A stretch of 34,364 nt of DNA from Catajapyx aquilonaris (Eukaryota), in NCBI GenBank assembly GCA_000934665.2, contig JYFJ02004146.1, positions 1 through 34,364 of the forward strand, given 5' to 3'. Each line of letters opens with the position of its first letter. The stretch's first letter is position 1. The position numbers and the translations under genes were made by a program. Of the stretch, positions 174 through 34,364 are shown one piece after another. The notes under the pieces are model-generated. The model was not told the DNA's origin. It saw only the letters and a list, made by a program, of their open reading frames with translations, and did no database searches.

Positions 174-3100
174 GGAGATCAAATCCAAGCCGAATTGGCA
201 GCTATGATCGTTCTCAAGGACGGCATTAAACTGCAGCACAAAGTACACCGAGAAGCTCTAAATCAGCTAGTGCAAGAAGGAGATATTGACCCTGATCTGA
301 AAGAGAGGCGAAAGGCTGAATGGGCGGATGTTTCTGCATTGGTAAAGACTCTGCTGGCTATAATATTGTGCTATGTGCACCGCATGTCCACGGTTAAAAT
401 GTGAATGTGTGTATATCCCCCATTCTTCCGCGCTGTTGCTTATTCTTCTTCTTCACAGTACGAACCTCTGTCTTGGGCCCACGCTGAAAGGATCGAGCAG
501 CTGGAGACTCAGCTGGCGGACGCCTTAAATGAGGTGTGCAAATTGTACCCACGACTCGACGAAGCCGTCGATGAAATTCAGCAACTGAAGAAGCAATTAG
601 TAACCGCTGGAATCTCCGTGTCAGAATATGGAGACAGCGCGTCTACAACAGATAGTTCATCGGGGTCGAAAAAGGTGAAGTCCTTTGTTAAAAACATTGG
701 TGTGCCAGAATACGTAATTGTGCGTATTTGGCAGTCTTTAAATTTGAGAAAAAGGCATCTGCACATCTTATTTGACCGATACAATTAACCCTCTGGTGAC
801 TAGTAAAAAAATAACTAAAGAGTTACTGTCTAATTATAAGGAAAATTCTTCTAATGAAACGGACAATTCAAATGGAAAAATCCCCATGTGATTGTACTGT
901 ACATTACATTTTTCAAGTGATAGTAGCCTACGTCATTTTGATTATGGACTACTACTTAGGTTAAGTTGTGCTGTACAGTACACTATATTTTGAATTAACA
1001 CACATGGCACATGCTATTGACTTTTAGGCTGGACAGCTTATTTAAATTACTTGTACTTGCTTGTACTGTATCTATAAGTACCATGGTAAACTTAGCTTGA
1101 GTATTTAAGTAAAGGCGTTGTTACCTCACCTCACTTGTAAAGTTACTTTCAAAGTCCATGGAACTGATGTCATACCGAAACATATCTGGATTCAAAAATC
1201 AACTTTTTTTTCAATATTCACTTGGACCTCTTTGTTCGAGAGTAGGCCTAGTTAGATCAGCAGAATTTTGCGTCTGCATACAAATAATGTCCATTTCAGA
1301 CAATTCATAAGATTCCGTAGTTTAAGTACAAAGTTATGGCATTATAGTGGACTATTGCTGATATTATGTGAAATGCTACTCACAGCAACCCCAAGTTATT
1401 TTCCTGTGATCTGTTTCATAACTTATGTGATTGGATCAAAGCATAAGTCGAGGTTAGAAAAGGCCCCCCTTGATACATGTGGCTGGATGCTTGCTTCACC
1501 TAGTGGGAGTGAGTCCAACCACATGGACTGTCTCTAATGTGTACAGTGCAGTGTCGGCATACAAGAGAAACACAGTAATTCCAAAAAACCAGTTTCGAGA
1601 TAATCGAAGGCACTTGCTTACAGGCTAGTGAAGACAGAAAATCCTGGCTTTCTGGTTGATTATTATTAATCTTTAGGACTAAATGGACTTCACCAGAGGC
1701 GATATAAAGTGAAAATGCTACTTGGTGGTGTTAATGTACACAAAACCGCAAATATTGGACTTAATGGATTTCACCTGCATGCCCACGATACGCTCATGTA
1801 AAGCGTAGTATTAGTCATACGGTGCTCTTGTAGTATTTTCCACGTGCAAAAACTTTAATTACTTGTTTGTGTATTTCTATTAAACAGTCGACATCAGTTC
1901 AAATAGAGGAATTACCTACCAAATCCATACCAAGTATTGGAAAAGAGGCCTTAAAGGTAAAGGCATCTCCAAAAAGGTTAGTAAGTTCGTCATTATCGCA
2001 AGCTACAACGGAGACAACGGCGGGGTGTGGACATAAATATGTTTACGGATTATAGGCACTCTAAGTCATGCAGCACACTCTGAAATAAGTCATGCAGCAC
2101 AGAACAGGCCACATCAACTAATTCGCCATTTTAAATTAATCTCGATATTAACACACTTTATTTCACCGTGTCATTTCTCATTTGTGTAATGGTTTTGAAA
2201 TAGTGATTGAATAGTAATTTTTAACAGGTTAATATTAATTTAGTGGAACCACTGGACATTCAAATACTAAGGTTATTTGGTTTGTTGTACTGAAAATACT
2301 ATCCAATACATACAGTATTACCCATTGCACAGTGTTATTGCACAACATATTACATGACATGCTGCGTTATTACAGCACAGAGCAACAAAAATATTTACTT
2401 TCATGGAAACAATTTTCAGTATGAAACAAGAGAGTTAAAATAACGGTGTTGTAGAATGAGGCTAATTGTTGATTTAGCTGACTTTTCTTATTGCTAATGC
2501 CAAAAACACTACTTACTGTGCTACCGAACCAATGCAATGTCTGAATTTTGGTGTAAAATGTGACTTGAGGCCCTTTTCATTTCACCGATTCAATATTGCA
2601 AATACCTTGTGTAGGATTCCGCAGACCAGTGTTTAATAATTTGTTACTTGTTCATGTCTATATCTGACTTACACACTCATTGCAGGAGCAAGGCAGGCAA
2701 AAGAGGAACAGCAAAATCGAAATACAAGGAAATTGTAAAGAAGCGATCAAAAACAAAAGGCCGAAAGAAAAAGAAAGCGATTGGTAAAGGGTCATTCAAG
2801 ACCGTGGTCAAACCCAGATACTTATACGGGAAAAAGCTCAGTCCTGCAGCCCTCGCAAGAGAGAAGGCAAAAAGACAAGTACAAGAGGCGTCTTTAAAAC
2901 ATACAAAAAGAGGTGTGGGCTGGAAGCCAGACCTGCGGCGTCATACGGCGCCGGCCATGCTCGAAAGGGAAGAACCTATTACCAAGAGGCTGTGGTTCGA
3001 ATCGAAGGAACAAGCTAGGATAACACAGCTACAGGGAATGTTATTAGTAAAAGAAGTGATGAGTAAAGACCCAATGGTGATGGATGTCCAGGATGCAAGA

Positions 3101-5962
3101 GCAGCAGTAAAGGCGGGACTAACAGACGCCAAATTAATAAACGTCAAATTTCTCTCGACATCTGAAAAGATACATATGGAGCAAGACCCAGCCGGATTTT
3201 ACAAGAAGAAGGTGGTAGAGAAGCTGGAACAGTTAGAAAAGAAGGATGCAGAAATAATAAAGCAGTTCGACTGGAGGAAGGCCCGAGACAAAGTCAAGGA
3301 CCGGAGCAGACACAGCATTCCAAAGTACCCTGCAAGTGCCATCGAGAAGGTTCAGATACGCCCTTTTCCTCCTCGTCGTCCTCCAGCTCCTCCTCCTGCT
3401 GAATTGATAAAGTCAAGTCATATTCAATACAAGCCCTCCTCCGCTCGGCCTCCTCTTGGTCCTCGCAGCGTGTCCGACACCACTCAAGAGCCTCCCGGCG
3501 TAGATGACGGGCTGGAGACAAATAAGAAGAGGCTCGAAAAGGCTTCTAGAAAGTCGGTCGAAGTGTCTTCTGAAATGAGCGTCCTTTCGTTAAAGAGAGG
3601 GGGTCCTGAAGTTGGGAAAGAGATCCGACATACCAGAAGCCAACGTCGTGACCGTGAGAGTGGGGCCACGGAGTACAGTGAGTTCGACGACGACAGGACA
3701 CGACGTGAAAGCGACGAGTTGGTGTTGTTGTTCACACGCGAGGGACATCCATCTGAACTCTCCGAGTACGACCGTACCAGCAGCCAACGTCGTGACCGTG
3801 AGAGTGTCGCCACGGAGTACGGCGAGTTCGATGACGACAGGAGACGACGTGAAAGCGACGAGGCGGAGGTTTTGGACACACGCGAGAAACGTCGACCTGA
3901 ACCTTATCTCTCCGATTACGACCGTCCTAGACGCTGGCGTCGTCAATATGAGAGTGGGGCCAAGGAGTACGGCGAGTTCGATGACGACAGAAGACGACGT
4001 GAAAGCGATGAGGCGGAATTCTTGCGCACACGCGAGAGACGTCGACCTGAACGCTCCGAGTACGACCGGTATGGCCGTCGACTCGACAGAGACAGTAGTT
4101 TACGATCGGGTTACGACGACGAATCCGAGTACGAGTCGCGTCGACGTGAATCACCAGGCAGGTATCGCGATCGTCGCCCTGAAGATTCTCCGTACGGACG
4201 ACGCCGACGTGAATTTGAATGGGGCAGGTCTGACGATCATCGCTACGACGAGACTGAGCACAGGCGTCGTCGACGTGTATCGCCAGGCAGGACTGACGAT
4301 CATCGCTACGACGAGCCTGAGCACGGGCGTCGTCGACGTGTATCGACAGGTAGGTCTGACGATCATCGCTACGACGAGCCTGAGTACGGGCGTCGTCGAC
4401 GTGTATCGACAGGCAGGTCTGACGATCATCGCTACGACGAGCCTGAGTACGGGCGTCGTCGACGTGTATCGCCAGGCAGGCTTCACGATCGTCATGGCGA
4501 AGAGCAGAGGCGGCCCAGATTCGACTCGTCTTCGACGCACGCCGAACGTAAGTTCGAAGAGGTCGAGGACGAAGAGGGCAAGGACCAGCCTTCGCGTCTG
4601 AAGAAGCGTGGACAACCAGAATACTCGAACAGATATGATGCTCGTCGGAGAGAAGGAGGCTTTCCAACCGAACTTGACGTGAGTGCCGTACAGGGCAAGT
4701 ATCCGTCGCGTCAGCCACACGTCGAAAGCCATCAGTTCATATCCCGAGACAGACGCCCCGTCGATCAGGGGTATCTAAGTTCATTGGAGCACATCAGACC
4801 CCCCGTCGATCAGGGGTATCGAAGTTCATTGGAGCACAGACCCACCGTCGATCATGGGTATCTAAGTTCATTGGAGCACTGGTCTAGCGTGGTGTCTACT
4901 CCCTCACTCTCAATGCCAAGGTAATGTGGAAAAGTCCTTCTTGCGTACGAGTATAATTTATGTAAAGCACTGCAAGTTCTACAAACATGCATCGTGCTTC
5001 CTTAAATCTCTCAGCATATCTAAAATTTCTCACTGACTTTCCATTCTGCACGTTATACTGTATTTTTCTCCATAAAAGACTTCCCAAAAACAAACTACTA
5101 ATCGCCCCATACACCTTCCAACCCGCAGAAGTTTCTCTGAAAAAGAGGAGAGCAAAATAAGTGTCACGAACCTAGACTACTACGAGAGAGATGAAGAAGC
5201 GCTAAAAGCAATGCCGTTTATGGACACTACGGAAATGTGGGAGGAAGTAGACGAAAACGAGGTGAAGGTCATCTGGGAAAAGTTGGCAGAAGTCGTCTGC
5301 ACAAGAGGCGTAGACAAGGTACCGCATCTATTACACAGTGTACCCCATCAGTCCAAAAAGAATTGTCCCTCGCGTCGAGCGGGCTGCCACGCGTCAGGAT
5401 GAAAGGAACCAGTTAACTGGTTGCTTTCATCCTGACGCGTGGCTGCCCGCTCGACGCGAGGGACAATTCTTTTTGAACTGTTGTACATACACACGCGCGA
5501 TCTTGAATTTGGCAAAAATATGCCACCTGACCGTAAATGGTGACAAACAAAAAAATAATGCTCTGAACTTTCACAGGAGAAGTGGACGAAAGAGCGTCTC
5601 ATTCGCAGCGAGCGATCGTGGCAGTTGCGCTATCGGGTCCTGCAACAGACGTGCAGATCGCATCGCGACGAATCTTACCTCAGAATGTCACTTCATCATC
5701 GTCAGGTGTCCCTGTGTACCGCGGCTCCAGGATATAAGGTTCGTCTTTTTCGTAATAAGCTCACCGCATAATAATACCGGATGGGGATGAAACGTGCTTT
5801 TTTTATTATTAATATTGTTGAAATCGCTGATTAGTATCCAAATTCCGCTATAAGCAAGCAACACAAAGTAACGAAATTAATGATGAAATATTTCAGAACA
5901 ACAATCAACCAGTTGGAATATGGCCAGTTCATCACCTTCCTCCAGGGAATTCCGCTGATTAG
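174..5962 (+). CDS. Uncharacterised multi-exon protein, 5'-partial: coiled-coil-like segment, Lys-rich segment, Pro-rich segment and Arg/Asp/Glu-rich tandem repeats
   Basis: Phase-consistent GT-AG exons read by eye: 174-341 (ph0), 459-674 (ph0; ERIEQLETQLADALNE...EIQQLKKQL heptad-like), 1888-1976 (ph2), 2686-4920 (ph2; within the 758-aa ORF), 5129-5318 (ph0). The last two exons, 5577-5738 and 5897-5962 (TAG), are tentative. AATAAA at ~6196. No family recognised. Confidence 0.65.
3638..4879 (+). repeat. Coding tandem repeats within the large exon
   Basis: Three ~144-156 bp units (SQRRDRES.ATEY.EFDDDR.RRESDE) from 3638, 3782 and ~3938. Four full 63-bp units plus a partial one (GRSDDHRYDEPEYGRRRRVST) from 4223, 4286, 4349, 4412 and 4475. 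Three 42-45 bp units (RPPVDQGYLSSLEH) at 4751-4879. Confidence 0.9.
5349..5480. mobile_element. 132-bp spacerless palindrome, probable MITE derivative
   Basis: Arms CAGTCCAAAAAGAATTGTCCCTCGCG... and ...CGCGAGGGACAATTCTTTTTGAACTG, centred on CCAGTT|AACTGG, with about 3 mismatches. Lies in an intron. No clear TSD. Confidence 0.7.
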
Positions 5963-20775: not shown

Positions 20776-21072
20776 ACCGAAGCAGTTTGGAGTAAGGGAT
20801 ATGGTGTCCGACTGCTAATCGGGAGGTCCTGGGATCAAATCCCGGGGCCGGCAACTCTGACCGTGGATTTATGTGGTTTCCCACGGTCCTTCCAGGAAAA
20901 TTCCGGAGTTGCTTCCGTAATTAATAGGCCACAGCCGCTTCCTTCCGTCCCTATCCTATCCCAAAAAGCGCGGTAAAATGAAAGCAAAGAGTTCCAGGAA
21001 AAACAAAACTTCCCCCCTAAAGAGCCGACGATGGCTGATAACGGGGTATGAATTATTAATTATTATTATCAT
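20776..21072 (+). mobile_element. tRNA-derived SINE, copy 1
   Basis: tRNA-like head (GACTGCTAATC, B-box-like GGATCAAATCCC), central core, (ATT)-type tail. 14-bp TSD TAATCTTTTA(T/G)GAA at 20762-20775 and 21073-21086. Near-identical to 33628-33926. Confidence 0.9.
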
Positions 21073-21766: not shown

Positions 21767-22229
21767 CGATCAGAGTCTAGAGTCCCGGCACGTTGTGATC
21801 TTCCTTGCTTGAAGCAAGGCTTTTTCTAACCAGGTTCCGTCATCTAATGTAAATCGTCTGGCACGCTTCCGTTGCACGCCGCTAGAGGCGCTGATGCCAG
21901 CCGCGGGGGGAAACTGCCGCTCACCGCTATGCATATGCTTACGTTTTCATTTAATATTTGCATGCAAAAAATGTATACGTTGAATCCGGATATAACATCC
22001 TCGGCTACAACCGATCCTTGGTTATAGCAGACTGGTCCCGCCATACTCACGCACTCTATGACCTGTGTATTTAGCTACAACAGACTCGGTTTATTACAGC
22101 AGACTGATTATATTTGAGCGGTTTTTTGATATCCGAGTCTTATGTAGTTTTTTTCGGGCAATGATTAAAGACCGTTATTGGAAATATCATCCCCTAAAAG
22201 ACTCAAGGAGCCATAACGCGAGGTATCCA

Positions 22230-22257
22230 TTATTATTATCGTTTATTATTATTATCG

Positions 22258-22311
<54 letters not shown>

Positions 22312-22429
22312 TTTGTTGTTGTTGTTTAATATTATCATTATTATTATTATTATTAGTATTAGTATTTTTGTTGTTGTTTATTATTATTAGTATTATTATT
22401 ATTATTAGTAGTAGTAGTAGTGTTTTTTG

Positions 22430-22471
<42 letters not shown>

Positions 22472-22545
22472 TTTGCTGTTGCTGTTGTTGTTGTTGTTGT
22501 TGTTTATTATTATTATTAATGTTGTTGTTGTTGTTGTTGTTGTTA
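22230..22545. repeat. Compound (ATT)n/(GTT)n microsatellite
   Basis: Directly visible, inside the left arm of the foldback element. Confidence 0.95.
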
Positions 22546-22948
22546 GCACAAGTGGTTACCAGACGTCCCGGATTGTCCGGGACTGTCCGGAATATCCACC
22601 CACTGTCCCGGATTCTTTCAGGGGTCATTCGGGATACCAATTTGTCCCGGATTACGCCAAATTGTCACGGTTATAGCAGGGCTATGTTAGTATACAGTAG
22701 TATATGACTGTAACAGTACAACATTTGATTACTCTCCGGTCAGCCAGCGACTTGAATGATGTATCTGGGACGGCCCAAACCAGTAGCCTATAACATCTCA
22801 TTACAGTGGCAAAAATAAGTAGTTATATAAAATATAATGGTACACCTGCGATGGTCTCCACTAAGGGTCTCCATCATCACCGACAGATCACCTCTTATTG
22901 TTTGCTACCCTAATAAAAAGGTCCAATAAAGCATATCATGGGATATCC

Positions 22949-23193
<245 letters not shown>

Positions 23194-23676
23194 TGGATAC
23201 CTCGCGATATGGCTCCTAGAGTCTTTTAGGGGATGATATTTCCAATAACGGTTTATCATTGCCCGAAAAAAACCACGTAAGACTCGGATATAAAAAAAAC
23301 CGCGCAAATCAGTCTGCTGTAATAAACCGAGTCTGTTGTAGCTAAATACACAGGTCATAGAGTACGTGAGTATGGCGGGACCAGTCTGCTATAACCAAGG
23401 ATCGGTTGTAGCCGAGGATGTTATATCCGGATTCAACGTATACATTTTTTGCATGCAAATATTAAATGAAAACGTAAGCATATGCATAGCGGTGAGCGGC
23501 AGTTTCCCCCCGCGGCTGGCATCAGCGCCTCTAGCGGCGTGCAACGGAAGCGTGCCAGACGATTTACATTAGATGACGGAACCTGGTTAGAAAAAGCCTT
23601 GCTTGAAGCTTCGAAGGCCGTTCGTTCTTCCACTTGCTGTATGCTGTTATTAGAGCTCTGGTTGACCTTCTTTTCT

Positions 23677-23776
23677 ATGCTGCCACAGCTGAGGAGAGGT
23701 TTCCTCCGACTGATCCTCCCAGTCAAGCCACTCAGGCGGTACGTCCACGGCACCATGGCCACCAGGACAGAACCAG
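23677..23776 (+). CDS. Putative shared first coding exon of the SERHL locus encoding a mitochondrial-presequence-like peptide
   Basis: MLPQLRRGFLRLILPVKPLRRYVHGTMATRTEP followed by CCAG|GTGGAT (phase 1). In-frame second ATG caccATGG at 23755. Phase matches acceptors at 25200 and 28932. Confidence 0.6.
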
Positions 23777-25189
23777 GTGGATACTAAGGCCCAGGGTCTA
23801 TATTCTCTGTGTCAGCTGGTATACAGACACAGTCTGTAAATGTGCACAGGATCTGACCGGTGAATACTTAAAATATGTGTCTTTACTAGGGCAACACCAG
23901 GGAGAAATAATTGGCAGAAATAGTTTTCTAAAGAAAACACGTTAAATTACCATTACAGTAGGTTTCTTCTTAATGGCAACAGTCCGAAGTCCCAAGGAGG
24001 CATTTTTTTTTTCTGGTTGAACTTGTAGAATTTCTGTATTCATTGGTCAGTTCATCTGCACATTTACCAAATTAGTTAATAAGCCAACAGAAGGATTCGA
24101 ATAATGTTTGACTGCCATTTATCATGTGATGGTTGGTTGATTGAAAGGATGCTACTGGACAGATTATACGTTATTGAGAAGTAATAATGTTGCATTTAAT
24201 TTTCAGATTTGCACACAATGATGTGTTCGCACATAATTTGAATAATTGCTAAATATTGCTGGGGATCAAAACAAGCTGTTGTCAATTATTGCATTTCACA
24301 CTTGTACGTGAAGATTTGGTAATATTTGCACTCTCATTAATACGGTCATAATAAGCAGCAGGTTGTGAGAACAATGTGCAACATTTGAAGAAGGATAAAT
24401 ACAAAGTGTGCGTCTTGTCTCATGTGCTGTCCATTCACATGTGAATGCATTTGGGACTCATGGAGTGAGTATCCACCCAAACAGTTCAAAATCATTGAAG
24501 AGGCTGCTCCCTGTAAACAAAACATAAGGATATTGTAGCTGCCTGAACAACTTAAAGCTCTTTGGGAGCAAGTGATACGTCCTGCTCTGTGAGTCCCAAA
24601 TTTGTCAATTTTATGTGAATGTGCCGTAAGGCATAGTTTAGGCTGCATTAAACGACATGGTAACAGGACAAGTGATGAGTCTTTGCGATAAAGATGGCAT
24701 AAGAGAGGTCAGCAGTCAGAGAGTAAGTTGTTGGACCAGATTTCTACCTTCAAAATGTTGTTACTCCCTGTCCACCCATGCCATTATTTGTCATATTACG
24801 TCATTGCTCATACTTCACATCTGATCAGGTCACTCACTTCTCAGTAGAAACCCCACCTAAGCAAAGGACTTTGTGGCTATCTGTATTTAGACTATTATTG
24901 CTCTGCCTAATTGCCTACTAGCATTTTGGCCTCATCTCATATCAATAGCTAAAGAACTTCATCCATTCCTGCACCAATTTTCATTTGGAAACCATTGTGT
25001 GTTTATGGGAATACTGACGAGTTCCCAGATGAAAATAGGTGCTGGAGTGGACAAAAGTCACCTTCCTACAGGTAGAACATTCCATCTACATATTGTGGGG
25101 AATGCTTGATGGATATATTTGTAGTGCTAGATCCTAATTGCAAGAAATGCCAAACATTTTGTGTCACTTAACTCACTGCCTTTAAATTG

Positions 25190-26468
25190 ATGGAATCAGA
25201 AAGGACAGCGGTGGAGCTCAAAATCCCAGTTCCTTGGGGACACATAGCTGCAAAGGACTGGGGCCCTCCTGATGGAATTCCTCTCCTGGGGCTGCATGGC
25301 TGGCAAGACAATGCAGGAACCCATGATCGCCTAGTGCATTTTCTTCCTGGACATCGTTTAGTGTCCCTTGACCTCCCAGGGCATGGCCTTTCGTCTCATT
25401 ATCCACCGGGGATGCACTACACATACTTTGATTTCTTCCTTGCTGTGAGGAGGGCTGTAATGCACCTTGGATGGACCAAATACAACATGATTGGGCATAG
25501 CATGGGTGGGTTGGTGGCAGCAGTATATGCCAGCGTGTATCCAAGTGAGGTCGAGAAGGTAGTCATGCTTGACACTGTCCATCCTCTGAGGAGAGAAGAG
25601 CGTATTCCCAGCAAACTTATTGACACTGTAAGTCCATTTTTGTGGCTCTGGGAATGGTGTAGCACTTGTTCATGGCATGTTTCTCATCGTTCATTAACAA
25701 GGCCTCCAACTCTGGCACTGTTGTTATTAATCTACTGTTTCCAACTAGTGTATGTTTTACTTGTACATTAATCAAGACGTAAAGTAATCATTCTGAAGCT
25801 TCTAACTGACATGATATAACCTCGCTATTGCTAGAGCACTTTATAGCAATCCATCTCCTAATTTACACTAATTTTAAAATTGCACATCCAGACTTCACCA
25901 CTGCTGTGGTACACCATTAACAAAGTTTGTCCTATTCCCAGTAGTGTAACATAATTTAGGCATGGCAAGCAAGAGCAGTAACTAAAGTGGAATTTTTTAT
26001 CAGGTGTTTGCAGTAGAAAAGAAACTAGAGAGACCAACTCCAACATTCACTCAAGAGGATGCAACAATGAGGGCAGCAGAAAACCTGACAGGACAAATGA
26101 GTCTGGACTCAATGAAGATATTGATGGAGCGGGGACTGAGGGAAGCTCCAGAAGGTGGCGGCAGGGTTATTTTCTCCAGGGATCTGCGCCTACAAACAAT
26201 CATGCTGTACTCAATGTCTCGGAGACAAGCCATGCAGTTTTTGTCCCACATTAAGTGCCATCTTCTAGTTGTGATATGCAAGAACCGGGTTGGGATGTTA
26301 CCTGATGCCCAGAAGGAGGACACTGAATTTTACGAGATGTATCAAAAGAAATGTTCTTCATTTCAACTAGAGCGAGTGGATGGTACACATTTTGTGCACT
26401 TGGATCACCCTGAGCATGTAGGACACATGGTAGCAAAGTTTCTTAGCAACACCTCCAGCCATCTGTAA
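25190..26468 (+). CDS. serhl: Serine hydrolase-like protein (SERHL/kraken-type alpha/beta hydrolase), paralogue A, intron-poor
   Basis: Exons 25190 (or acceptor 25200)-25627 and 26004-26468 (GTAAGT...TTTTTTATCAG, ph0). Motifs IPVPWGHI, LHGWQDN, DLPGHG, GHSMGG (nucleophile), SRDLRL, GTHFVHL. Ends -SHL. AATAAA at 27193. Confidence 0.9.
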
Positions 26469-27947
26469 GGAAGTCAATGCAGTTCCAATGATACTTCTTT
26501 GACTCGGAGTAAGCCTTGAGAAAGTTACTTTTTTTTCATGCGAGTATGAAGAAGTTGATTTATTCTTGGAGAGATTTGACAGGCCAAATATTCCATCCCT
26601 TTCCAGCCTTTGTGCAGTATCTGTTCCTCCATAGTGTAATGGAAGTAATCGAAGGAGATTAATTGATGCAAGTGAATAAGCAATAATTTCAAAAGCACTA
26701 AGGAACTACACCTGATTTTTGACATTTGTATAGCTGCATTGTTACTGGAGGCTTGGGCAACAATATCAATTTGTTTTGAGATTTCTGTATAGAATGGCTT
26801 AGTCATGGGGCAAGTCATCATGGTAAAGTCATCACAACATGTAAGCCACATCTTTCTTGACAATGACAGTATTTGTAGTGATGACAAGCCAACATGGTTT
26901 TAATTGGCAGTAATTTCCTGTGGAGCTGCCACTTGGGCCATTTGTGTCTACTCTTGAGTATTTGTAACTTGTACGTACTACAACTGTGAAGTCCCTCTAA
27001 TACCAATGTGGAAGCTTGTTTACAATGGCTCTTGACCAAAACTCAGAGTACTAAACAGTCTCCTCAGTCATGGCAGGTTTTGCTGAATGGTACAAAATTG
27101 AACCAGCATGACTACCTTAGGCAGCAGAAATCTGGTATTACAATTTGCCCTACAACTTGAACTGCCTATCTTTTAAGCACTGTTTTTCTTGCAATAAATG
27201 CTCATTTCATCGTGCCCTATGACCATGTCATGGTAAATGATCATGACTTAACTATCTCAGAGCACTACCTCCACCATATGCTGAGGTATTTGGTATCTAA
27301 TGTTGTCAGCATGTCTTTTGGGAAGCTGGATAGTTCAAAACTTGGTGCTTACGAGACTACCATTCGCATTCTCAACTGTGATATACCTTGGTGCTTCCAC
27401 AACAAAACTAGAATGTTCTGCTTCATTCCTTTCCTCACATTGGCCCTCTTTTGCGTAAGTACCAGTTTTTAAAATGCTAAATTTAACTTCCACCTTACTG
27501 ATAAAATCAATCAGCTATTTCATCAATGTTTTATGCACTGTATGATCTACTTACTCAGAAAACTTCATTTAAGTGATGCTCAGTGTGTAACTCAGATGAA
27601 AACTGTGAGCGTCCTTTATACACTGTCTTTTGCACTTTTACACTGTCTTTTATTATGGTGATTTCAAATTGATTTAAAATATGTGCTCCATTATTATACA
27701 CTATTTTAATATTTCGTGGACTGCTTGCTCTTTATTCTAAATGTAAGAATGCAATTATTCAAGCCTTAAAACATTATAGGAAAATAAGAATTTTGTAATG
27801 ATGCCATTTACTTAGGTGATGAAATGATACCGATTACTTTAAGTCCATTTGTAACATCCACATATAACGGCAATCAAGATGTGTCATTACATCATTTTGT
27901 CATCAAAGTGAATACAAGCCTGATAGTATGGTACTTATACTTGGGTC

Positions 27948-27999
27948 GTTCCCCCCAGAGAGTCCTATATGGCCCCACAAACCAGTATGTAAAGTAGTA

Positions 28000-28074
<75 letters not shown>
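27948..28074 (+). mobile_element. 5'-truncated non-LTR retroelement 3' end with (TAA)n tail
   Basis: 12-bp TSD TATACTTGGGTC at 27936-27947 and 28075-28086, around ~50 bp of unique sequence plus a long (TAA)n run. Confidence 0.75.
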
Positions 28075-28931
28075 TATACTTGGGTCATATGTGACACCTT
28101 ATCAGAAGTTCATTGATAAAATATAAACTTTCAAATGTTTGTGATTTCACTCTGCTTTAGTTGTGACAAGTTATGTTGTGGCCAGTGCAGGAGAATTCTG
28201 TGTGAAGTTATAATAGTCAAAACTTCAGTGTGATGAAATGTGCCAAAAATATTAATAATAATAGTTGTTATTATACATTGTGAAATTAAATGCAGGTCTC
28301 AAAAGACATCTCAACAATTAGTTATGGTACTGGTACTGTAATGCATATGTATTACAAATAGTGTGTAATTGATAGCTCTTGTTGATAGCAATAATACAAG
28401 TGACATCCAGTCAGTCAGCAGTGTAGCTTATTTTTTTCTACCTTGCTTATTCTCTGTATCTGTGACAAGAATTGTTAATCACCAGTGAATGGTCCCTGCT
28501 CTCTGGCAGCCTGCCAACTTTGATTTCCTGTTACTTTGAACTGGGACCTGTTGGCAGCACTTGTTATCTGTGTCCTTCAATTGGGTTCAGGGATTACTGT
28601 ACAATGCCTTAGTCTCCCCCACAGTCTCTCCTCAATCTGCTCTTCTGCTGGCAGCTGCTTTGGAGGTTGTTGGTATTGTAATTTTATTTATACTCCTTCT
28701 GATGAGTGGCTAGTGCATTGTTATTACTCAGATTTGAGTGTGGTGATAATGAGTTTTTATTATCATTACATGTACTGAAACTGATTTTGTGTAGCTGTCA
28801 ATCAGAAATGTCCAGTAGCAAAGCTGAGTTAGCATAACACATTATTAATATCAGTCAACTACACTGCCACTCCAGCATTGTCAGTTTACTTTGTGTGGTA
28901 GAGAGGCTACCATTTTAAAACTTATTTTCAG

Positions 28932-29253
28932 GCACTTCAAGTACATCAACCACATCCTTGAAAATGCAAGAAAATGGTGCGTACCCAACTGACATAACTA
29001 TCCCTGTGCCCTGGGGACATATCTCAGGTAGGTATCAAATACAAGTAATAATATATTGTACATGTACTGTTCCTTGCTGTATTAAGCATTCAATTGGGAA
29101 AAAAACCATTCATATCAGGGAAATCATTTTAAAACACTTGAAATTGGGAAAATTGTATGATACACTACAGGCTCCTCATAAAATGCCAAGACAGTAAGAG
29201 TAAAACAACTCAATTACCACCCACACTTACGGTTAGTGACAATCAGGAACAAT

Positions 29254-29303
<50 letters not shown>

Positions 29304-31446
29304 TCATACCCTGTTATCAGCTGGCAGCTCTTTAGGGGGGGGAGTTCATCCCAATTTTGTTTTGACTGGAACTCTTTGCTTTCATTTTTACTTTGCGTTT
29401 TGGGATGGGATAGGGACGGAAGGAAGCGGCTGTGCGCGGCTGTGTCCTAATTATTTAGGAAGCAATCCTGGAATTCTCCTGGGGGTACTGTGGGAAACGT
29501 CAGAAAACCACAGTTAGGATTGCTGGCCCTGGGACTCAAACCCAGGACCTCCCGATTAGCAGTCGAACACCTTATCCACTCCACCAAACTGCTTCGGTGG
29601 AACAATTTAATAATTGTGTGGGATGAAGTTTTTTGTGAAGCAGAGGTTCCTGCAATTGTTCGCAGAATGTTTCTCACAGAATAAATGTTGAAAGAGTTGA
29701 GTTCAGGTCTTTCATGGCGCATGAAAATTTATCAGTGAAAGTGAAACAATAGTCCAGGGCAATTAAAATGGGTGTAAACTGCATAAAACAGGATGTGGGT
29801 GAGTTTTAATGGACACCAGCTCATTGTTAGTGAATAATATGTTTTATTCACAGGTAAGGATTGGGGTCCTGAGACAGGGAAACCCCTTCTGGCCATGCAT
29901 GGATGGCAGGACAACTGCGGCACTTTTGATCTCCTAGCACCACTCATTCCTCAAGAGTGGCGATTGATCTCAATTGACCTTCCTGGGCATGGATATTCCT
30001 CCCATCTACCACCAGGAATGTTTTATGACAAGCTTTCAGATGTGGCTACTGTTCGCAGAGTCATCAAGCACTTGGGATGGGCATCCTTCAGTGTATGTGC
30101 CCAATAATTTCCATGCAAGGATATTTCAAGCAATGTTATTCTCCCCTACAGATTATTGGGCACAGCATGGGAGCTGGGATTGGCATGCTATATTCATGCA
30201 TTTATCCAGATGATATTGAGAAGCTGATATGTCTTGATCTGGTCAGACCAACAACAAGACCATCATCTGAGCATCATCTAGGTGCAAGGGCAGGAATCAC
30301 TGCTTTCTTAGACATGGAGGTAATTATGCCTCGAATTCATCAGCATTACATCTTTTACAACCTTGGACCACATTTTCAGGCCAAAATGAAATGTAATTCT
30401 GCACCCAAGTACGACCCAGATGATGCATTTGAGCGCCTATTGAAAGCAACTGGAGGTGAACTAAGCCCAAGGTCAGCAAAGATTCTCCTCAAGAGAGGGA
30501 TGAAGCCAGCTGATGATGATGACACCAAATTTGTGTTCACTCGTGATCCCCGCCTTCAAACACCATCATTGCATCGATTCACTCATGAGCAACTTATGCA
30601 GTTTGCTTCTAATATGAAGTAAGTGACTGGAACACGTTGGTATTTTCCGAGATGGGGGGAAGTGGCAAAGCCTATTCCTTTTTTTCTATCTCGAACTTAA
30701 GTGACCATAGTTGTCATTACTAACTTATGTTAGTCACACTTAGCTCTTGGTCACACTGACAATATCAGGAAAGGTGACATTAGTCTGAACGACTGAACTT
30801 CAAAAAGTCAGAGTGTAGCACTTTTTTGTGACTGACCAGACTTAACTGATAGTATATCAGAAAGCATGCAAAGAGACAATGATGTCAATAATATTGTGGA
30901 AATTTCGCAGTGGCCTGATGTCTGATACTCAAGTAGTGATTGGCATTATGTAACAAAGACGGCTGGCTCCCAACATTGTAGATCATCATAAAGCCTAGGC
31001 TTATCTCCACTTCCTGTTACCAATGCCAAATGGCATTGCACAATTTCTGGATGGCTTGCATGTAGTTATGCAAAATACCCTTATATGTATGCATATGGAG
31101 TTGAGTCCCCAAACTGACATGAATACCTGTGTTCCTAGAAATGTGTCTTACTGACCTTTTCTTCAGGTGTGAGACGCTGGTGGTGAGAGCACTTCTATCT
31201 CCAAAGGGAACCGAGTCTCGAGTTCATCCACAAGAACTGTCAAAGGTGGCCAAGAACATAAAAAGTTACCTAAGCAAGCAGGAGTTGGAGGAAAAGGAAA
31301 TGCTGGCTCTATACAAGCAGAAGTGTCGTCGACATTCCTATGTTGAAGTAACTGGCACTCACTTTGTGCACCTTAACCAGCCTGAACTTGTCTCTCCCCA
31401 TGTTGCTTGCTTTCTAAGAGGTGAATCAAATTCAGGAGGAGATTAA
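28932..31446 (+). CDS. serhl: Serine hydrolase-like protein (SERHL/kraken-type), paralogue B, intron-rich
   Basis: Exons 28932-29027 (internal ATG 28964; IPVPWGHIS), 29854-30092 (KDWGP, HGWQDN, DLPGHG), 30152-30319 (GHSMG), 30380-30618 (TRDPRL), 31167-31446 (GTHFVHL, TAA). All GT-AG, phases 1/0/0/2 consistent. Confidence 0.92.
29262..29598 (-). mobile_element. tRNA-derived SINE, copy 3 (more diverged), in an intron of SERHL paralogue B
   Basis: Reverse complement starts ACCGAAGCAGTTTGG like the other copies. (ATT)n tail. 16-bp TSD GGAACAATTTAATAAT at 29246-29261 and 29599-29614. Confidence 0.88.
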
Positions 31447-31919
31447 AGTGAGCAACTTGTCATGTCTAGTGTTTGTGTTTGGGATCTGTTGTGTTACTTA
31501 AACAGCTGTAGCATGCCAGATTATAATGTGAGTCAAAAGAAATTATCTTCATCTTATGTTAATTATGGAACAATGCAAGAGGTAAGTTGTGGTCATGGAA
31601 GACTTGTGTGGATGGGTATTGTTCAGTTGATTACAAGTTTTGTTAATTTCTGACTTCTGTTTTGAACATGCAGGTTACTTCAGGAATAGTAAAACACAAT
31701 TTTGATTCATAATCTGCTTCATGTGTGTTCTTGTGATCTTCAAGGGAGTGCTGATAGATTCCTTGCACTCACCATTTTGTTAGTTCCTTTTCAAAAACAC
31801 CTGTATCACATGCAAGGTGATAGTTGCTAAGGGTCAAATACCAAATATCACCTCTCTAATATTAGTATGCTTTTTCTGTTGTTTAGGTTTACAGTTATGA
31901 CAACTACCCGGCATTTACA

Positions 31920-32460
31920 ATGAAAGAGGGTTGAGTGGTCATGAACAACCTTTTATTAAAAAGACAATAGGCCAAACACACATTTAAAACAATGCGTCTA
32001 TTACATTAGGTGACATGTCTTCCTACTCCCCTGTCAAAAACTGGGTTGATGAATTATATAACAGGTCATTTCACCACTGAAGGCAAAGAACATTCTGGAG
32101 GGTTAGTTGAAGTGACTGGTCCTGAAAATGTGGATGCCATTCATTTCATGATATTGCACCAGCATTTCTCAACCAGGGTTCCACAATAAACAGTGATGAA
32201 TAGGCTAATCATATGCAAATGTACATTTGAGTTTTTAATTGCTAGGTTTATAGTATAATAATTTTTATGTAGGGGTTCCCTGAGATATGAATATTATTTC
32301 AAGGGTTCTGCAAGGGTAAAAAGGTTGAGAAACGCTGTATTAGAGGATTGAAAAGTCACACCTAAAAGGTAGCAGAGGTCCAAAGTATACATCACATGTT
32401 ATTTAAGACATTGGACATGAGGAAGCTCTCAACCAAATGGATGGCCAAATGTTTGAATGA
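31920..32460 (+). pseudogene. Degenerate mariner transposase N-terminal remnant, interrupted by a hAT MITE
   Basis: Frameshifted translation gives SYSPVKNWVDE, GHFTTEGKEHSG...VTGPENVDAIHFMILED* and LDMRKLSTKWMAKCL, matching the mariner HTH/WVPHEL-linker region. Boundaries approximate. Confidence 0.7.
32160..32337. mobile_element. hAT/Charlie-type MITE
   Basis: TIRs CAGCATTTCTCAACC / GGTTGAGAAACGCTG, internal GGGTTC motifs, degenerate 8-bp flanks TATTGCAC / TATTAGAG. Confidence 0.8.
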
Positions 32461-32875
32461 TTGTATGATCTTTACACTACGTAACAAATAACACCTTTTT
32501 ATCCACGGGTATTCATGGCACTTCCATGTTTCTTAGGACACTTGTAACTCATAATGACCATTCATTTTGTCTGAACGTTTTTTAAATAGCTTGAATGGGG
32601 CAGTCAGAAAACCAATCGATGTTGCTAGATCATCTCGGAATTTGCCGAAAGAAATCAGAGCTGTACGCACCTATGATTCGGAATGACACCAATATTTCGA
32701 GGAATTTGGTTTTTTGAATGCCCCTAGGTCAAAACCAAAGGTCAGACAAAATGAAATGTCATTATATGAGTAACGAGTGGCCTAAGGAGCAATGGCAATG
32801 AAGTCCCATGGACAAATAATATCGTGTTCATAGTGTTATGGACGAGAAGCACTATGATGAGTTGATGACTCCATA

Positions 32876-33000
32876 TGGATCAAGGCAGAGACTCTGTGAT
32901 CTTGCTCTGCTGAGTGTAGAAAGAAAAGAAATTGACAAAAACAACTGACGTTGACCCATCATAGACCAAATTGCATCAGTGAAATCAAAAGGAAGGCGTG
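32876..33000 (+). pseudogene. hAT transposase C-terminal dimerisation-domain remnant
   Basis: RLCDLALLSVERKE...IIDQIASVKS with in-frame stops, resembling the ERLxxLALLSIE...IIDxFA end of hAT transposases. Confidence 0.6.
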
Positions 33001-33350
33001 GTTGTAATTTTTATGAAAAGTGTCATTTGTCATTGAAAAGATTAATGAACTTTCGACTAGTATATTTAAGCTTATTTAATTATGAAGTTATATGAAAGAA
33101 GGGGGGAAAATTTCATAGCTCATGAGGAGCCAAAGAACTAGAAAGGTTTGTTTGAATGGTTATGAATAAATATACCATGCTACATACTGTACTGTAAGTG
33201 TACTAGTACCTCTGGCTGGAACATGCCCTGATTCGAAATTTTATATGCGACAAGACAATTACGACAAATGTTGGTTGGTGACAATGTAAAATAATAGTAT
33301 TTCAAAGTTCCCAAGTCAAACCGTCACGAAGTTCTCCATCGAATAATTTG

Positions 33351-33507
33351 CAAGTGGGTAACCACTTCGGTACTCCAGTGTACACCTGCGAGTGATACTG
33401 CCACAGGTACTCCTTAGGTGCCTTACTCTTCGGTACTCCTTGGTACTCCTTGAATTTGGTACCGGTACTCCAGTGTACACTTTTTAATTCGAGTGGTTAC
33501 CCTCTTG
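33351..33507. mobile_element. 157-bp MITE with 16-bp TIRs and perfect 8-bp TSD (P- or hAT-like)
   Basis: CAAGTGGGTAACCACT...AGTGGTTACCCTCTTG (1 mismatch). ATAATTTG at 33343-33350 and 33508-33515. Five internal GGTACTCC repeats. Confidence 0.85.
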
Positions 33508-33627
33508 ATAATTTGCTATGGTACTGTACCGATGTATTTGCAATTCATAGTCTCCACAAGTTTATATAGCAGATTCAGGTAACTTATAGGTTTTGCCTGG
33601 TCGGCTGGGATTAAAATAAGAAATACT

Positions 33628-33926
33628 ACCGAAGCAGTTTGGAGTATAGGGGATATTGTGTCCGACTGCTAATCGGGAGGTCCTGGGATCAAATCCCTGG
33701 GCCGACAACTCTGACCGTGGTTTTCTGTGGTTTCCCACGGTCCTTCCAGGAAAATTCCGGAGTTGCTTCCGTAATTAATAGGCCACAGCCGCTTCCTTCC
33801 GTCCTTATCCCATCCCAAAACGCAAAGTAAAAATGAAAGCAAAGAGTTCCAGGCAAAACAAACTTCCCCCCTAAAGAGCCGACGGCTGATAACGGGGTAT
33901 GAATTATTAATTATTATTAATTATTG
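33628..33926 (+). mobile_element. tRNA-derived SINE, copy 2
   Basis: Near-identical to 20776-21072. Perfect 13-bp TSD AATAAGAAATACT at 33615-33627 and 33927-33939. Confidence 0.92.
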
Positions 33927-34269
33927 AATAAGAAATACTCAACATCGTTTCGAAAGCAAAATTTTCCATGTCTGCCTGCACAGGACTTTGCTTAGTGGCC
34001 GTCTTTCAATCATTAAAAAAGAAGAAGAAATAAATAGATTTGATGATGCACGGTATTATGATTCCAAATGTTAGCGACAGTGGCTAGGAAGTACGCTTAC
34101 TTCCCAGCCACTATCTCTAACATAACCTCCCCAGCCATTATGTCTAGACAACATCCGTAACTTATCATTATTGCAAATCGGCGCACAACATGAAGTCATA
34201 CTAAAGTTTTCATATCTTTGAATATAAGAGCGGTGTATTGCATTTTGTGATTGCGAATACTGTGAAATA

Positions 34270-34364
34270 CGAGGGCGGATCAAAAAAGACTGAGACTTAT
34301 TTTTTTTCTCACACTATTTATTGAACTGGATCAATGGGCACATGGTCTTTTTCGAAGTACTCCC
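34270..34364 (-). mobile_element. 3' end of a mariner element, truncated by the window edge
   Basis: TA followed by mariner-type TIR CGAGGGCGGATCAAAAAAG. The minus strand reads ...EYFEKDHVPIDPVQ*, like the mariner C-terminal G(D/E)YFE. Confidence 0.75.

Follow-up and report, generated by a model that had tools for sequence, protein, structure and literature searches.

The textbook example of a first exon shared by two whole proteins is the cholinergic locus (ChAT/VAChT), in which the smaller open reading frame lies in the first intron of the larger gene. For Ixodes, a shared 82-bp exon 1, confirmed by RT-PCR, and a VAChT ORF exon within intron 1 of ChAT are reported (PMC7524744). A first-pass annotation of 34,364 nt of Catajapyx aquilonaris DNA, the whole stretch being referred to hereafter as the window, had proposed a design that would work in the same manner: one leader exon that can be spliced onto either of two paralogous serine hydrolase bodies, A and B. 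The cholinergic exon is short and its products are unrelated proteins of one pathway, whereas here the exon would be coding and the products paralogous enzymes. Moreover, the joint from the leader to the distal body is here absent from the contigs of the RNA run used (X1).

The first-pass annotation knew of no such cassette for SERHL/kraken genes, but RefSeq isoforms of two insects show this design. Isoforms X1 (XP_059484873/4), X2 (XP_059484875) and X3 (P0266) of Neocloeon triangulifer have an identical N-terminus of 60 aa, and isoforms X1 (P0234) and X2 (XP_063228390) of Bacillus rossius redtenbacheri have an identical one of 52 aa. Past this shared part the isoforms differ over the whole enzyme, with 39–49% identity in Neocloeon and 40% in Bacillus. 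As in the proposed model, a basic, presequence-like N-terminal exon is thus combined with two to three whole bodies that have their own C-termini. However, the part shared in insects takes in IPVPWGHIAGK and stops at the point that corresponds to the first intron of B, whereas the leader here is presequence only and IPVPWGH is carried by each body. Furthermore, the insect design is computed annotation, while here RNA supports the junction to the first body only. No mention of a shared-leader whole-enzyme design for SERHL/kraken was found in the text available to a full-text literature search, Kraken papers included. In Drosophila, Kraken is described as a serine hydrolase found in gut and Malpighian tubules, with a putative role in detoxification and support from activity-based proteomics (PMC13568702), and a review table enters the fly protein as not localised to peroxisomes (PMC7477296).

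A and B belong to the SERHL/kraken alpha/beta serine hydrolases. Like SERHL/SERHL2 of vertebrates and the Kraken or 'probable serine hydrolase' proteins of arthropods, they share the PF00561 domain. Exon 2 of A matched Pfam PF00561 (Abhydrolase_1) with an E-value of 1.7e-19 (70.9 bits; cut-off 25.8); exons 2 and 3 of B matched with E-values of 1.7e-5 and 6.3e-5 (25.1 and 23.2 bits), which fall just short of a cut-off meant for whole proteins since the two were scanned singly. The lengths of A and B fit the family range (about 300–340 aa), and their motifs are those of SERHL/kraken proteins (IPVPWGH, HGWQDN, DLPGHG, GHSMG and a C-terminal GTHxVH). The GHSMG elbow (G-x-S-x-G) and the C-terminal histidine motif GTHFVH are present in both, which are presumed to be catalytically active; as the first-pass annotation had it, HGWQDN, GHSMG and GTHFVHL are retained in the two bodies, each of which ends at a stop of its own. 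Protein searches gave 101 and 341 matches at E ≤ 0.001, the named ones being 'probable serine hydrolase', 'serine hydrolase-like protein' and 'kraken', and no relative above 61% identity was found among these. A and B are 43% identical (128/296 aligned residues) and are, on protein comparison, each other's nearest relatives. In a tree of 190 sequences they paired in a small non-insect clade with a fish SERHL and unnamed sequences, apart from the insect proteins. Exons and other features of the locus are listed in Table 1.

Table 1. Features of the A and B locus, in positions of the window.
Feature	Positions	Strand	Remarks
CpG-rich patch, presumed promoter region	23200–23616	.	Directly upstream of leader; only one in 22.8–31.6 kb
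Leader exon, gene A	23657–23776	+	RNA contig from 23657; ATG 23677; donor CAG/gtggat
Gene A intron 1	23777–25199	+	1423 nt, GT..AG; contig joint 23773>25197 (cut +3)
Gene A exon 2	25200–25627	+	IPVPWGH, HGWQDN, DLPGHG, GHSMG nucleophile elbow; Abhydrolase_1; two contigs
Gene A exon 3, coding part	26004–26468	+	GTHFVH; C-terminus -SHL; TAA 26466–26468; joint 25627>26004
Gene B exon 1 (B1)	28932–29027	+	96 nt; encodes IPVPWGHIS; RNA contig from 28931
Gene B exon 2	29854–30092	+	HGWQDN, DLPGHG; joints 29024>29851, 30092>30152; Abhydrolase_1
Gene B exon 3	30152–30319	+	GHSMG; contig joints; Abhydrolase_1
Gene B exon 4	30380–30618	+	Joints 30317>30378 (cut +2), 30618>31167
Gene B exon 5, coding part	31167–31446	+	GTHFVH; stop TAA; 3' UTR to at least 31672 (contig)

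The RNA data came from a single public run (X1) kept as assembled contigs, in which rare forms are lost and neither true transcript starts nor strand are visible. The contigs skip six introns at the locus, all GT..AG, and therefore derive from spliced RNA. They bear out the junction 23776>25200 as well as the internal introns, one in A and all four in B, so that the exon structures, the leader-to-A splice and a B contig that lacks the leader are directly observed.

All the sequence features listed in the first-pass annotation were found where it had placed them, those of the leader exon and body A included. From the ATG at 23677 the coding part of the leader extends over 100 nt (33 residues plus 1 nt, phase 1) and is followed by GT; the start-codon context has T at -3. 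The predicted junction 23776>25200 was recovered in a spliced contig of 343 nt (depth 10.9) that runs unbroken from 23657–23773 into 25197–25422 (117 + 226 letters) and does not branch across the 3' end of the leader. Inside the intron, CTTAAC (25167–25172) has its first downstream AG at 25198–25199. The in-frame ATG 25190 is absent from the RNA contigs of run X1, which have zero depth in bins 24038–25144 and leave 24038–25196 without cover. Joined, the coding parts of the three exons form a single open frame of 330 aa. In a second A contig (mean depth 5.9) exon 3 continues into a 3' UTR that reaches position 26897 or beyond; farther downstream, contigs cover 26991–27613 and 27685–27952, and gapped cover continues to about 28.1–28.2 kb, beyond the AATAAA at 27193–27198 noted earlier. 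Gene A comprises three exons, the last from 26004 onward, and encodes a 330-aa protein ending in -SHL.

The contig of gene B (1249 nt) has the highest depth, 14.8. Exactly 94 letters stand ahead of its joint 29024>29851, and the contig therefore starts at 28931, without leader sequence; no leader letters were found on it in run X1. The depth of bin 28835–29203 is fully explained by this contig (94 x 14.8 / 369 = 3.77, as compared with 3.78 observed). Depth is zero in 28466–28834, and contig cover in run X1 is absent over 28466–28930. The predicted junction 23776>28932 was not found in run X1, and the proposal that A lies within intron 1 of B was not borne out by contigs that lack a leader-to-B joint. 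Of the leader that both bodies were thought to share, the splice to A is present in RNA and that to B is absent from run X1. Gene B probably has its own 5' end in the sampled RNA and probably starts at ATG 28964 (329 aa; context GAAAATGC, A at -3). Its mRNA would begin at or very near 28931, about 0.8 kb past the end of A's long 3' UTR, and translation from ATG 28964 would yield an enzyme of 329 aa that, like the family members with a short N-terminus, lacks a presequence. On balance we favour, with some reserve, two tandem, same-strand SERHL/kraken paralogues in which leader-to-A is the only leader splice seen and B has a 5' end of its own. The locus would then be an ordinary tandem gene pair rather than a single promoter serving two enzymes.

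The N-termini of homologues are consistent with both starts. Many carry a basic extension directly before IPVPWGH (e.g. P0114–P0117, P0005 and P0159), and others begin about 10 residues before this motif (e.g. P0119, P0120 and P0173). The extension is 39 aa in leader plus A and 10 aa in B when read from its own ATG, both within these two common length classes. It is at least 20 aa long in 136 of 189 homologues, and 53 of the 136 have at least three basic and at most one acidic residue in the first 20 aa.

An unlikely alternative, to be taken seriously nonetheless, is that a single promoter before the leader serves both enzymes. The donor at 23776 would be spliced either to A at 25200, with polyadenylation after A, or to B at 28932, by read-through; A would lie inside intron 1 of B, one presequence would be placed on either whole enzyme (330 or 373 aa), and in the sampled RNA the leader-to-B form would be scarce, or restricted to a tissue or stage. 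The leader is in phase with B1, and with the five B exons it forms one open frame of 373 aa, including the 32 nt before B's ATG, with introns that are all GT..AG, as had been claimed. This fit argues only weakly for the shared leader, being expected by chance in an estimated 1 in 5 cases because it takes a one-in-three match of frame and a run of 10 codons free of stops. B1 is preceded, as was also claimed, by an acceptor-like sequence, TTATTTTCAG, which we take to resemble an initiator (TCAGG) as well. As an acceptor it is strong, with 14/20 pyrimidines at -22 to -3 as compared with 10/20 for the proven acceptor of A. The B contig begins 1 nt before the G that follows TTATTTTCAG, as it would if the assembly had broken at a splice between B1 and some sequence farther upstream. 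However, CAG before B1 is common to leader and genome, and a break arising from those two forms would be expected at 28929, not at 28931.

The CpG distribution also favours a single promoter. One CpG-rich patch precedes the leader, and 23200–23676 contains 30 CpG (observed/expected 1.21). The 200-nt windows before 25200 and 28932 contain 1 and 0–1 CpG, in agreement with the first-pass annotation, which saw no such patch before either body. The 979-nt stretch that ends just before B1 (27953–28931) contains 0 CpG, against 20.7 expected at the window average, and a CpG-poor block (observed/expected 0.26) starts at the leader exon (23601) and extends without interruption to about 32400. From what is known of gene-body methylation in invertebrates, this block resembles a single transcription unit, methylated in the germline and CpG-rich only at its 5' edge. 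Positions 23307–23616 also make up the right arm of an inverted repeat (98%). The window contains neither another copy of the leader nor, from the stop of A to B1, an alternative coding first exon of phase 1; therefore B must take its presequence from this leader or lack one. Precedent within the family is given by the isoform models of Neocloeon triangulifer and Bacillus rossius, and in fused models of Timema (P0107 and P0109) a single PVPWG goes with two copies each of HGWQDN and GHSMG. A speculative hint comes from depth: if A's part of the 343-nt contig is set at 5.9, the leader part would be at about 24, near the sum of A and B (20.7).

The assembly points the other way. If B depended on the leader in this sample, a de Bruijn assembly should, we infer, branch at the leader's 3' end, yet the leader-to-A contig is unbranched at 23776 even though the depth of B exceeds that of A, and leader depth is fully explained by the single contig that continues to A. 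Assembly of a leader-to-B mRNA should moreover have left up to 30 leader letters on the B contig, given the expected breaks of a k=31 graph, and these are missing. The product of leader plus B would have an unusually long extension of 54 aa; only 10 of 189 homologues have one of at least 50 aa. Since A and B fall in a non-insect clade and each body has its own IPVPWGH, unlike the insect genes, the computed insect models offer an analogy and not a homology. That the leader is shared in an unsampled tissue or stage, in an arrangement that places A inside intron 1 of B and would have arisen independently of the insect loci, seems to us doubtful.

It is less probable still that B1 is an internal exon spliced to an uncaptured upstream exon, with translation still from ATG 28964 and the partner being a non-coding first exon elsewhere, a donor in A's 3' UTR (A-B read-through) or a trans-spliced leader: the contig start within 1 nt of an acceptor-like site, the uncovered sequence immediately upstream, the CpG-free region before B1, unlike a CpG-type promoter, and unexplained contig cover in 28097–28465 (mean 2.02) would fit, but no loose ends or joints at 28931 were among those listed for run X1, the assembly should have attached a single upstream partner to the B contig, and no SL RNA or other Rfam family was found in the window.

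In the tandem pair that we favour, the leader would give A alone a targeting signal. The leader peptide has seven R+K in 33 residues, six of them within the first 22, and its first acidic residue is at position 32; it is thus basic, hydroxylated and acidic-free before position 32, the composition of a mitochondrial-type presequence. Its maximal hydrophobic moment is 0.70, as compared with 0.64 ± 0.16 in shuffles, 36% of which were at least as high. On composition, we read it as a putative organelle (mitochondrial-type) presequence. It contains RRY/V, which we take to resemble the R-3 cleavage motif. The C-termini are -SHL in A and -GGD in B. The consensus of peroxisomal targeting signal 1 is [SAC][KRH][LM], and only A carries a tripeptide of this type; -SKL is the C-terminus of 16 of 189 homologues.

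The best reading of the locus is a routine annotation result, two tandem SERHL-like genes. Gene A has a separate exon for the presequence and, in -SHL, a possible peroxisomal signal; B lacks both, which would suggest that the duplicates diverged in cellular location. The more interesting by-product is the set of insect RefSeq models with two to three alternative enzymes behind one presequence exon. RNA confirmation of the design, in insects and here, would make it a clean case from nature in which tandem duplicates serve as mutually exclusive whole-domain cassettes, comparable to ChAT/VAChT. An independently arisen shared leader in Catajapyx, if true, would mean that the SERHL/kraken family is repeatedly prone to turn tandem duplicates into mutually exclusive whole-enzyme cassettes.

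Every feature that the first-pass annotation had named around the leader exon and the two paralogous serine hydrolase bodies, A and B, was recovered when its position was checked in the sequence; the window is eukaryotic DNA with introns. Joining the leader to either body gives a single open frame (see table), and the splice sites of the leader + B frame are canonical throughout. Ahead of A, a branch-point-like CTTAAC occupies 25167-25172, with 25198-25199 as the nearest AG downstream. Both bodies matched Pfam Abhydrolase_1 and contain IPVPWGH, HGWQDN, GHSMG and GTHFVH; they are 43% identical (128/296 aligned residues). The single internal intron of A falls at most six alignment columns from the third intron of B, and B's other three introns are absent from A. 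That third intron (30320-30379) is 60 nt long, in frame and stop-free; its retention would add 20 residues, and it is removed in the RNA contig. The first exon of B (B1) is symmetric, with 96 nt and phase 1 at both ends, and a splice from the leader to the second exon (B2) without B1 would also be in frame.

Leader exon and the reading frames obtained by joining it to each hydrolase body
Feature	Position	Strand	Remarks
Leader exon	ATG 23677 to 23776, then GT	+	100 nt, ends in phase 1
Leader + A	leader + 25200-25627 + 26004-26468	+	single 330-aa frame
Leader + B	leader + 28932-29027, 29854-30092, 30152-30319, 30380-30618, 31167-31446	+	single 373-aa frame

The only public sequencing run found, X1, is kept as contigs and its kind is not on record; the run search returned none recorded as RNA. 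X1 contained 39% of the sampled words of 23300-31800, and its contigs were aligned to 23300-34364. Each of the six stretches that the contigs skip has GT..AG ends, and the introns are left without cover; the contigs thus come from spliced RNA. Record 1 (343 nt, depth 10.9) matched 23657-23773 and then 25197-25422. With its 3-nt ambiguity this joint is exactly 23776>25200, so the predicted leader-to-A junction is real. Reading the leader region from the minus strand, where 23433-23783 is an open frame, was rejected because the GT..AG ends of the joint are on the plus strand. The in-frame ATG of A at 25190, proposed as a possible start of its own, falls inside the intron removed in record 1, the only A contig at that point, and is uncovered; it was therefore rejected for the X1 sample. 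Its use elsewhere is possible, given that horseshoe-crab isoforms are annotated with and without a presequence. Record 2 confirmed the internal intron of A and reaches 26897, while further contigs over 26991-27613 and 27685-27952 span the AATAAA at 27193. As contig cover continues past this signal, the 3' UTR of A probably extends to about 28.1-28.2 kb. For B, the four internal introns were all confirmed by record 5 (1249 nt, depth 14.8). Exact scans of metagenome contigs gave no match to a 26-nt string from B exon 1 or to a 27-nt leader string.

B mRNA was more abundant than A mRNA in X1. Had this abundant mRNA carried the leader, a branch would be expected at 23776 in the k-mer graph, and up to 30 leader letters at the start of the B contig. 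Neither was seen: a leader-to-B branch was not found in X1, the leader contig running directly into A, and record 5 has exactly 94 letters ahead of B's first intron, with no leader sequence, which places its start at 28931, 1 nt upstream of the proposed acceptor. By our arithmetic, record 1 alone accounts for the depth of 3.09 in the leader bin, and record 5 alone for the depth of 3.78 over 28835-29203. X1 contigs do not cover 24038-25196 or 28466-28930, and such holes are not evidence of absence. From what we infer about how contigs break, it is hard to avoid the conclusion that B has its own 5' end in the X1 sample. The boundary before B1 (TTATTTTCAG/G) reads as a good acceptor, with 14/20 pyrimidines as compared with 10/20 for the proven acceptor of A, and its TCAGG also resembles an initiator. 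The context of B's ATG at 28964 is good (GAAAATGC), while position -3 relative to the leader's start codon is a T. The first-pass annotation had one leader spliced to either body, with A inside intron 1 of B. Half of this interpretation stands, in that RNA assigns the leader to A; B is most likely a separate paralogue that lies downstream and has a start of its own, a reading that we favour with some reserve.

Alternatively, the leader could be common to A and B and be used for B in conditions other than those sampled, which we consider unlikely. Its phase fits B1 and no stop interrupts the 32 nt ahead of B's ATG, a coincidence with a chance of about 1 in 5 by our estimate. The leader occurs only once in the window (best non-self tblastn E 0.059), and B has no other plausible presequence exon there: none of 49 candidate phase-1 ATG-to-GT exons in 26469-28931 had a decent donor on a crude 5-point score. 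On the other hand, leader and B together would give an extension of 54 aa, and extensions of at least this length occur in just 10/189 homologues. CpG composition bears on the same question. The observed/expected ratio is 0.6-1.8 across most of 1-23600 (1.2-1.4 in 23200-23600) and averages 0.26 over the stretch from 23601 to ∼32400; B1 is preceded by 979 nt with 0 CpG, against 20.7 expected. In invertebrates with mosaic methylation, such a pattern is typical of a single methylated transcription unit whose one promoter is unmethylated, as a common leader would predict, but two abutting methylated genes could produce the same picture. The CpG-poor block is sharply bounded (0.26 over 23777-31446 as compared with 0.72 for the whole window); it begins at the leader exon, covers both genes and the spacer, and ends ∼1 kb past the stop of B. 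From its composition, it looks like a germline-methylated domain. Splicing of B1 to some other, unseen exon appears less probable still.

Upstream of the leader lies a 310-nt inverted repeat (arms 21800-22109 and 23307-23616, 98% complementary); between the arms are 1197 nt rich in microsatellites, with additional inverted segments (e.g. 22164-22255/23168-23259, 95%). The right arm stops 41 nt short of the 5' end of the contig that contains the leader exon, which would place the presumed promoter of A within the arm of a foldback-like element; alternatively, the repeat (21800-23616) may be an assembly palindrome. An interspersed repeat of ∼290 nt is present in three copies, 78-93% identical, at 29311-29600, 33628-33893 and 20776-21068, one of them in B's first intron. 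Contig depth over these copies in X1 is very high (bins at 846 and 7410), and ARAGORN and Rfam found nothing in them; over the window, Rfam gave 0 matches at the gathering threshold and ARAGORN 0 tRNAs. A plus-strand open frame at 2615-4924 (769 codons), in which R, D, E and S are very frequent and RRRRVS.GR.DDHRYDEPE-like units recur, lies in a GC- and CpG-rich stretch.

Protein searches with exon 2 of A and of B returned relatives of at most 61% identity; almost all of them carry the name 'probable serine hydrolase', 'serine hydrolase-like protein' or 'kraken'. One report describes Kraken as a serine hydrolase with a putative role in detoxification (PMC13568702). In a tree of 190 bodies, A and B were mutual nearest relatives (support 0.475), grouped with one fish SERHL and unnamed sequences in a nine-member clade (support 0.812) apart from the insects. 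At least 20 residues precede IPVPWGH in 136/189 homologues with a recognizable motif, and in 53 of these 136 the first 20 residues are basic and nearly free of acidic residues. The corresponding extension is 39 aa for leader + A and 10 aa for B from its own ATG, both within the two common classes. The leader peptide contains seven basic residues, and its first acidic one comes at position 32; as its helical moment is not above that of shuffles, we call it presequence-like only in composition. The C-terminus of A, -SHL, fits the PTS1 pattern and that of B does not; -SKL ends 16/189 homologues.

At least 15 identical N-terminal residues are common to 26 pairs among 296 gathered proteins, and 22 of these pairs are close relatives, 79-99% identical elsewhere. 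The four exceptions come from Neocloeon triangulifer, whose X1, X2 and X3 (P0154, P0179 and, for X3, P0266) have 60 identical N-terminal residues (64 for X1/X3) and then 39-49% identity, and from Bacillus rossius redtenbacheri, whose X1/X2 (P0140 and, for X1, P0234) have 52 and then 40% identity. Neighbouring accession numbers point to one gene for the Neocloeon isoforms. In these mayfly and stick insect RefSeq 'probable serine hydrolase' isoforms, a single first exon is followed by two or three alternatives for the entire body. A whole-enzyme cassette, of a kind that the first-pass annotation did not know for SERHL/kraken genes, thus already exists in annotation of the family, though as computed models. 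The shared exon of the insect sets contains IPVPWGH, whereas the Catajapyx leader does not. Two fused Timema models have one PVPWG motif with two HGWQDN and two GHSMG; fused models of Ladona, Strigamia and Blattella have one PVPWG for each body. Vespula squamosa isoform X2 (P0002) and Polistes canadensis isoform X3 (P0003) have two consecutive HGWQDN...DLPGHG copies, and look as if two tandemly duplicated, probably mutually exclusive, exons had both been included.

Literature searches returned nothing specific on a shared first exon or tandem duplication, and on SERHL/Kraken only background. The classic analogue of a shared first exon is the cholinergic locus: in Ixodes, exon 1 is common to ChAT and VAChT, the VAChT ORF lies inside ChAT intron 1, and RT-PCR confirmed the arrangement (PMC7524744). 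The serine hydrolase-like proteins of Tachypleus tridentatus (P0130, P0220, P0221, P0163) include isoforms X1-X3 of one gene with different N-termini, which either have or lack a basic extension ahead of a start that resembles the region of A's intronic ATG, and a near-identical paralogue whose accession number follows directly. In the SERHL/kraken family, it seems common for N-termini to vary between isoforms and for genes to occur as tandem copies.
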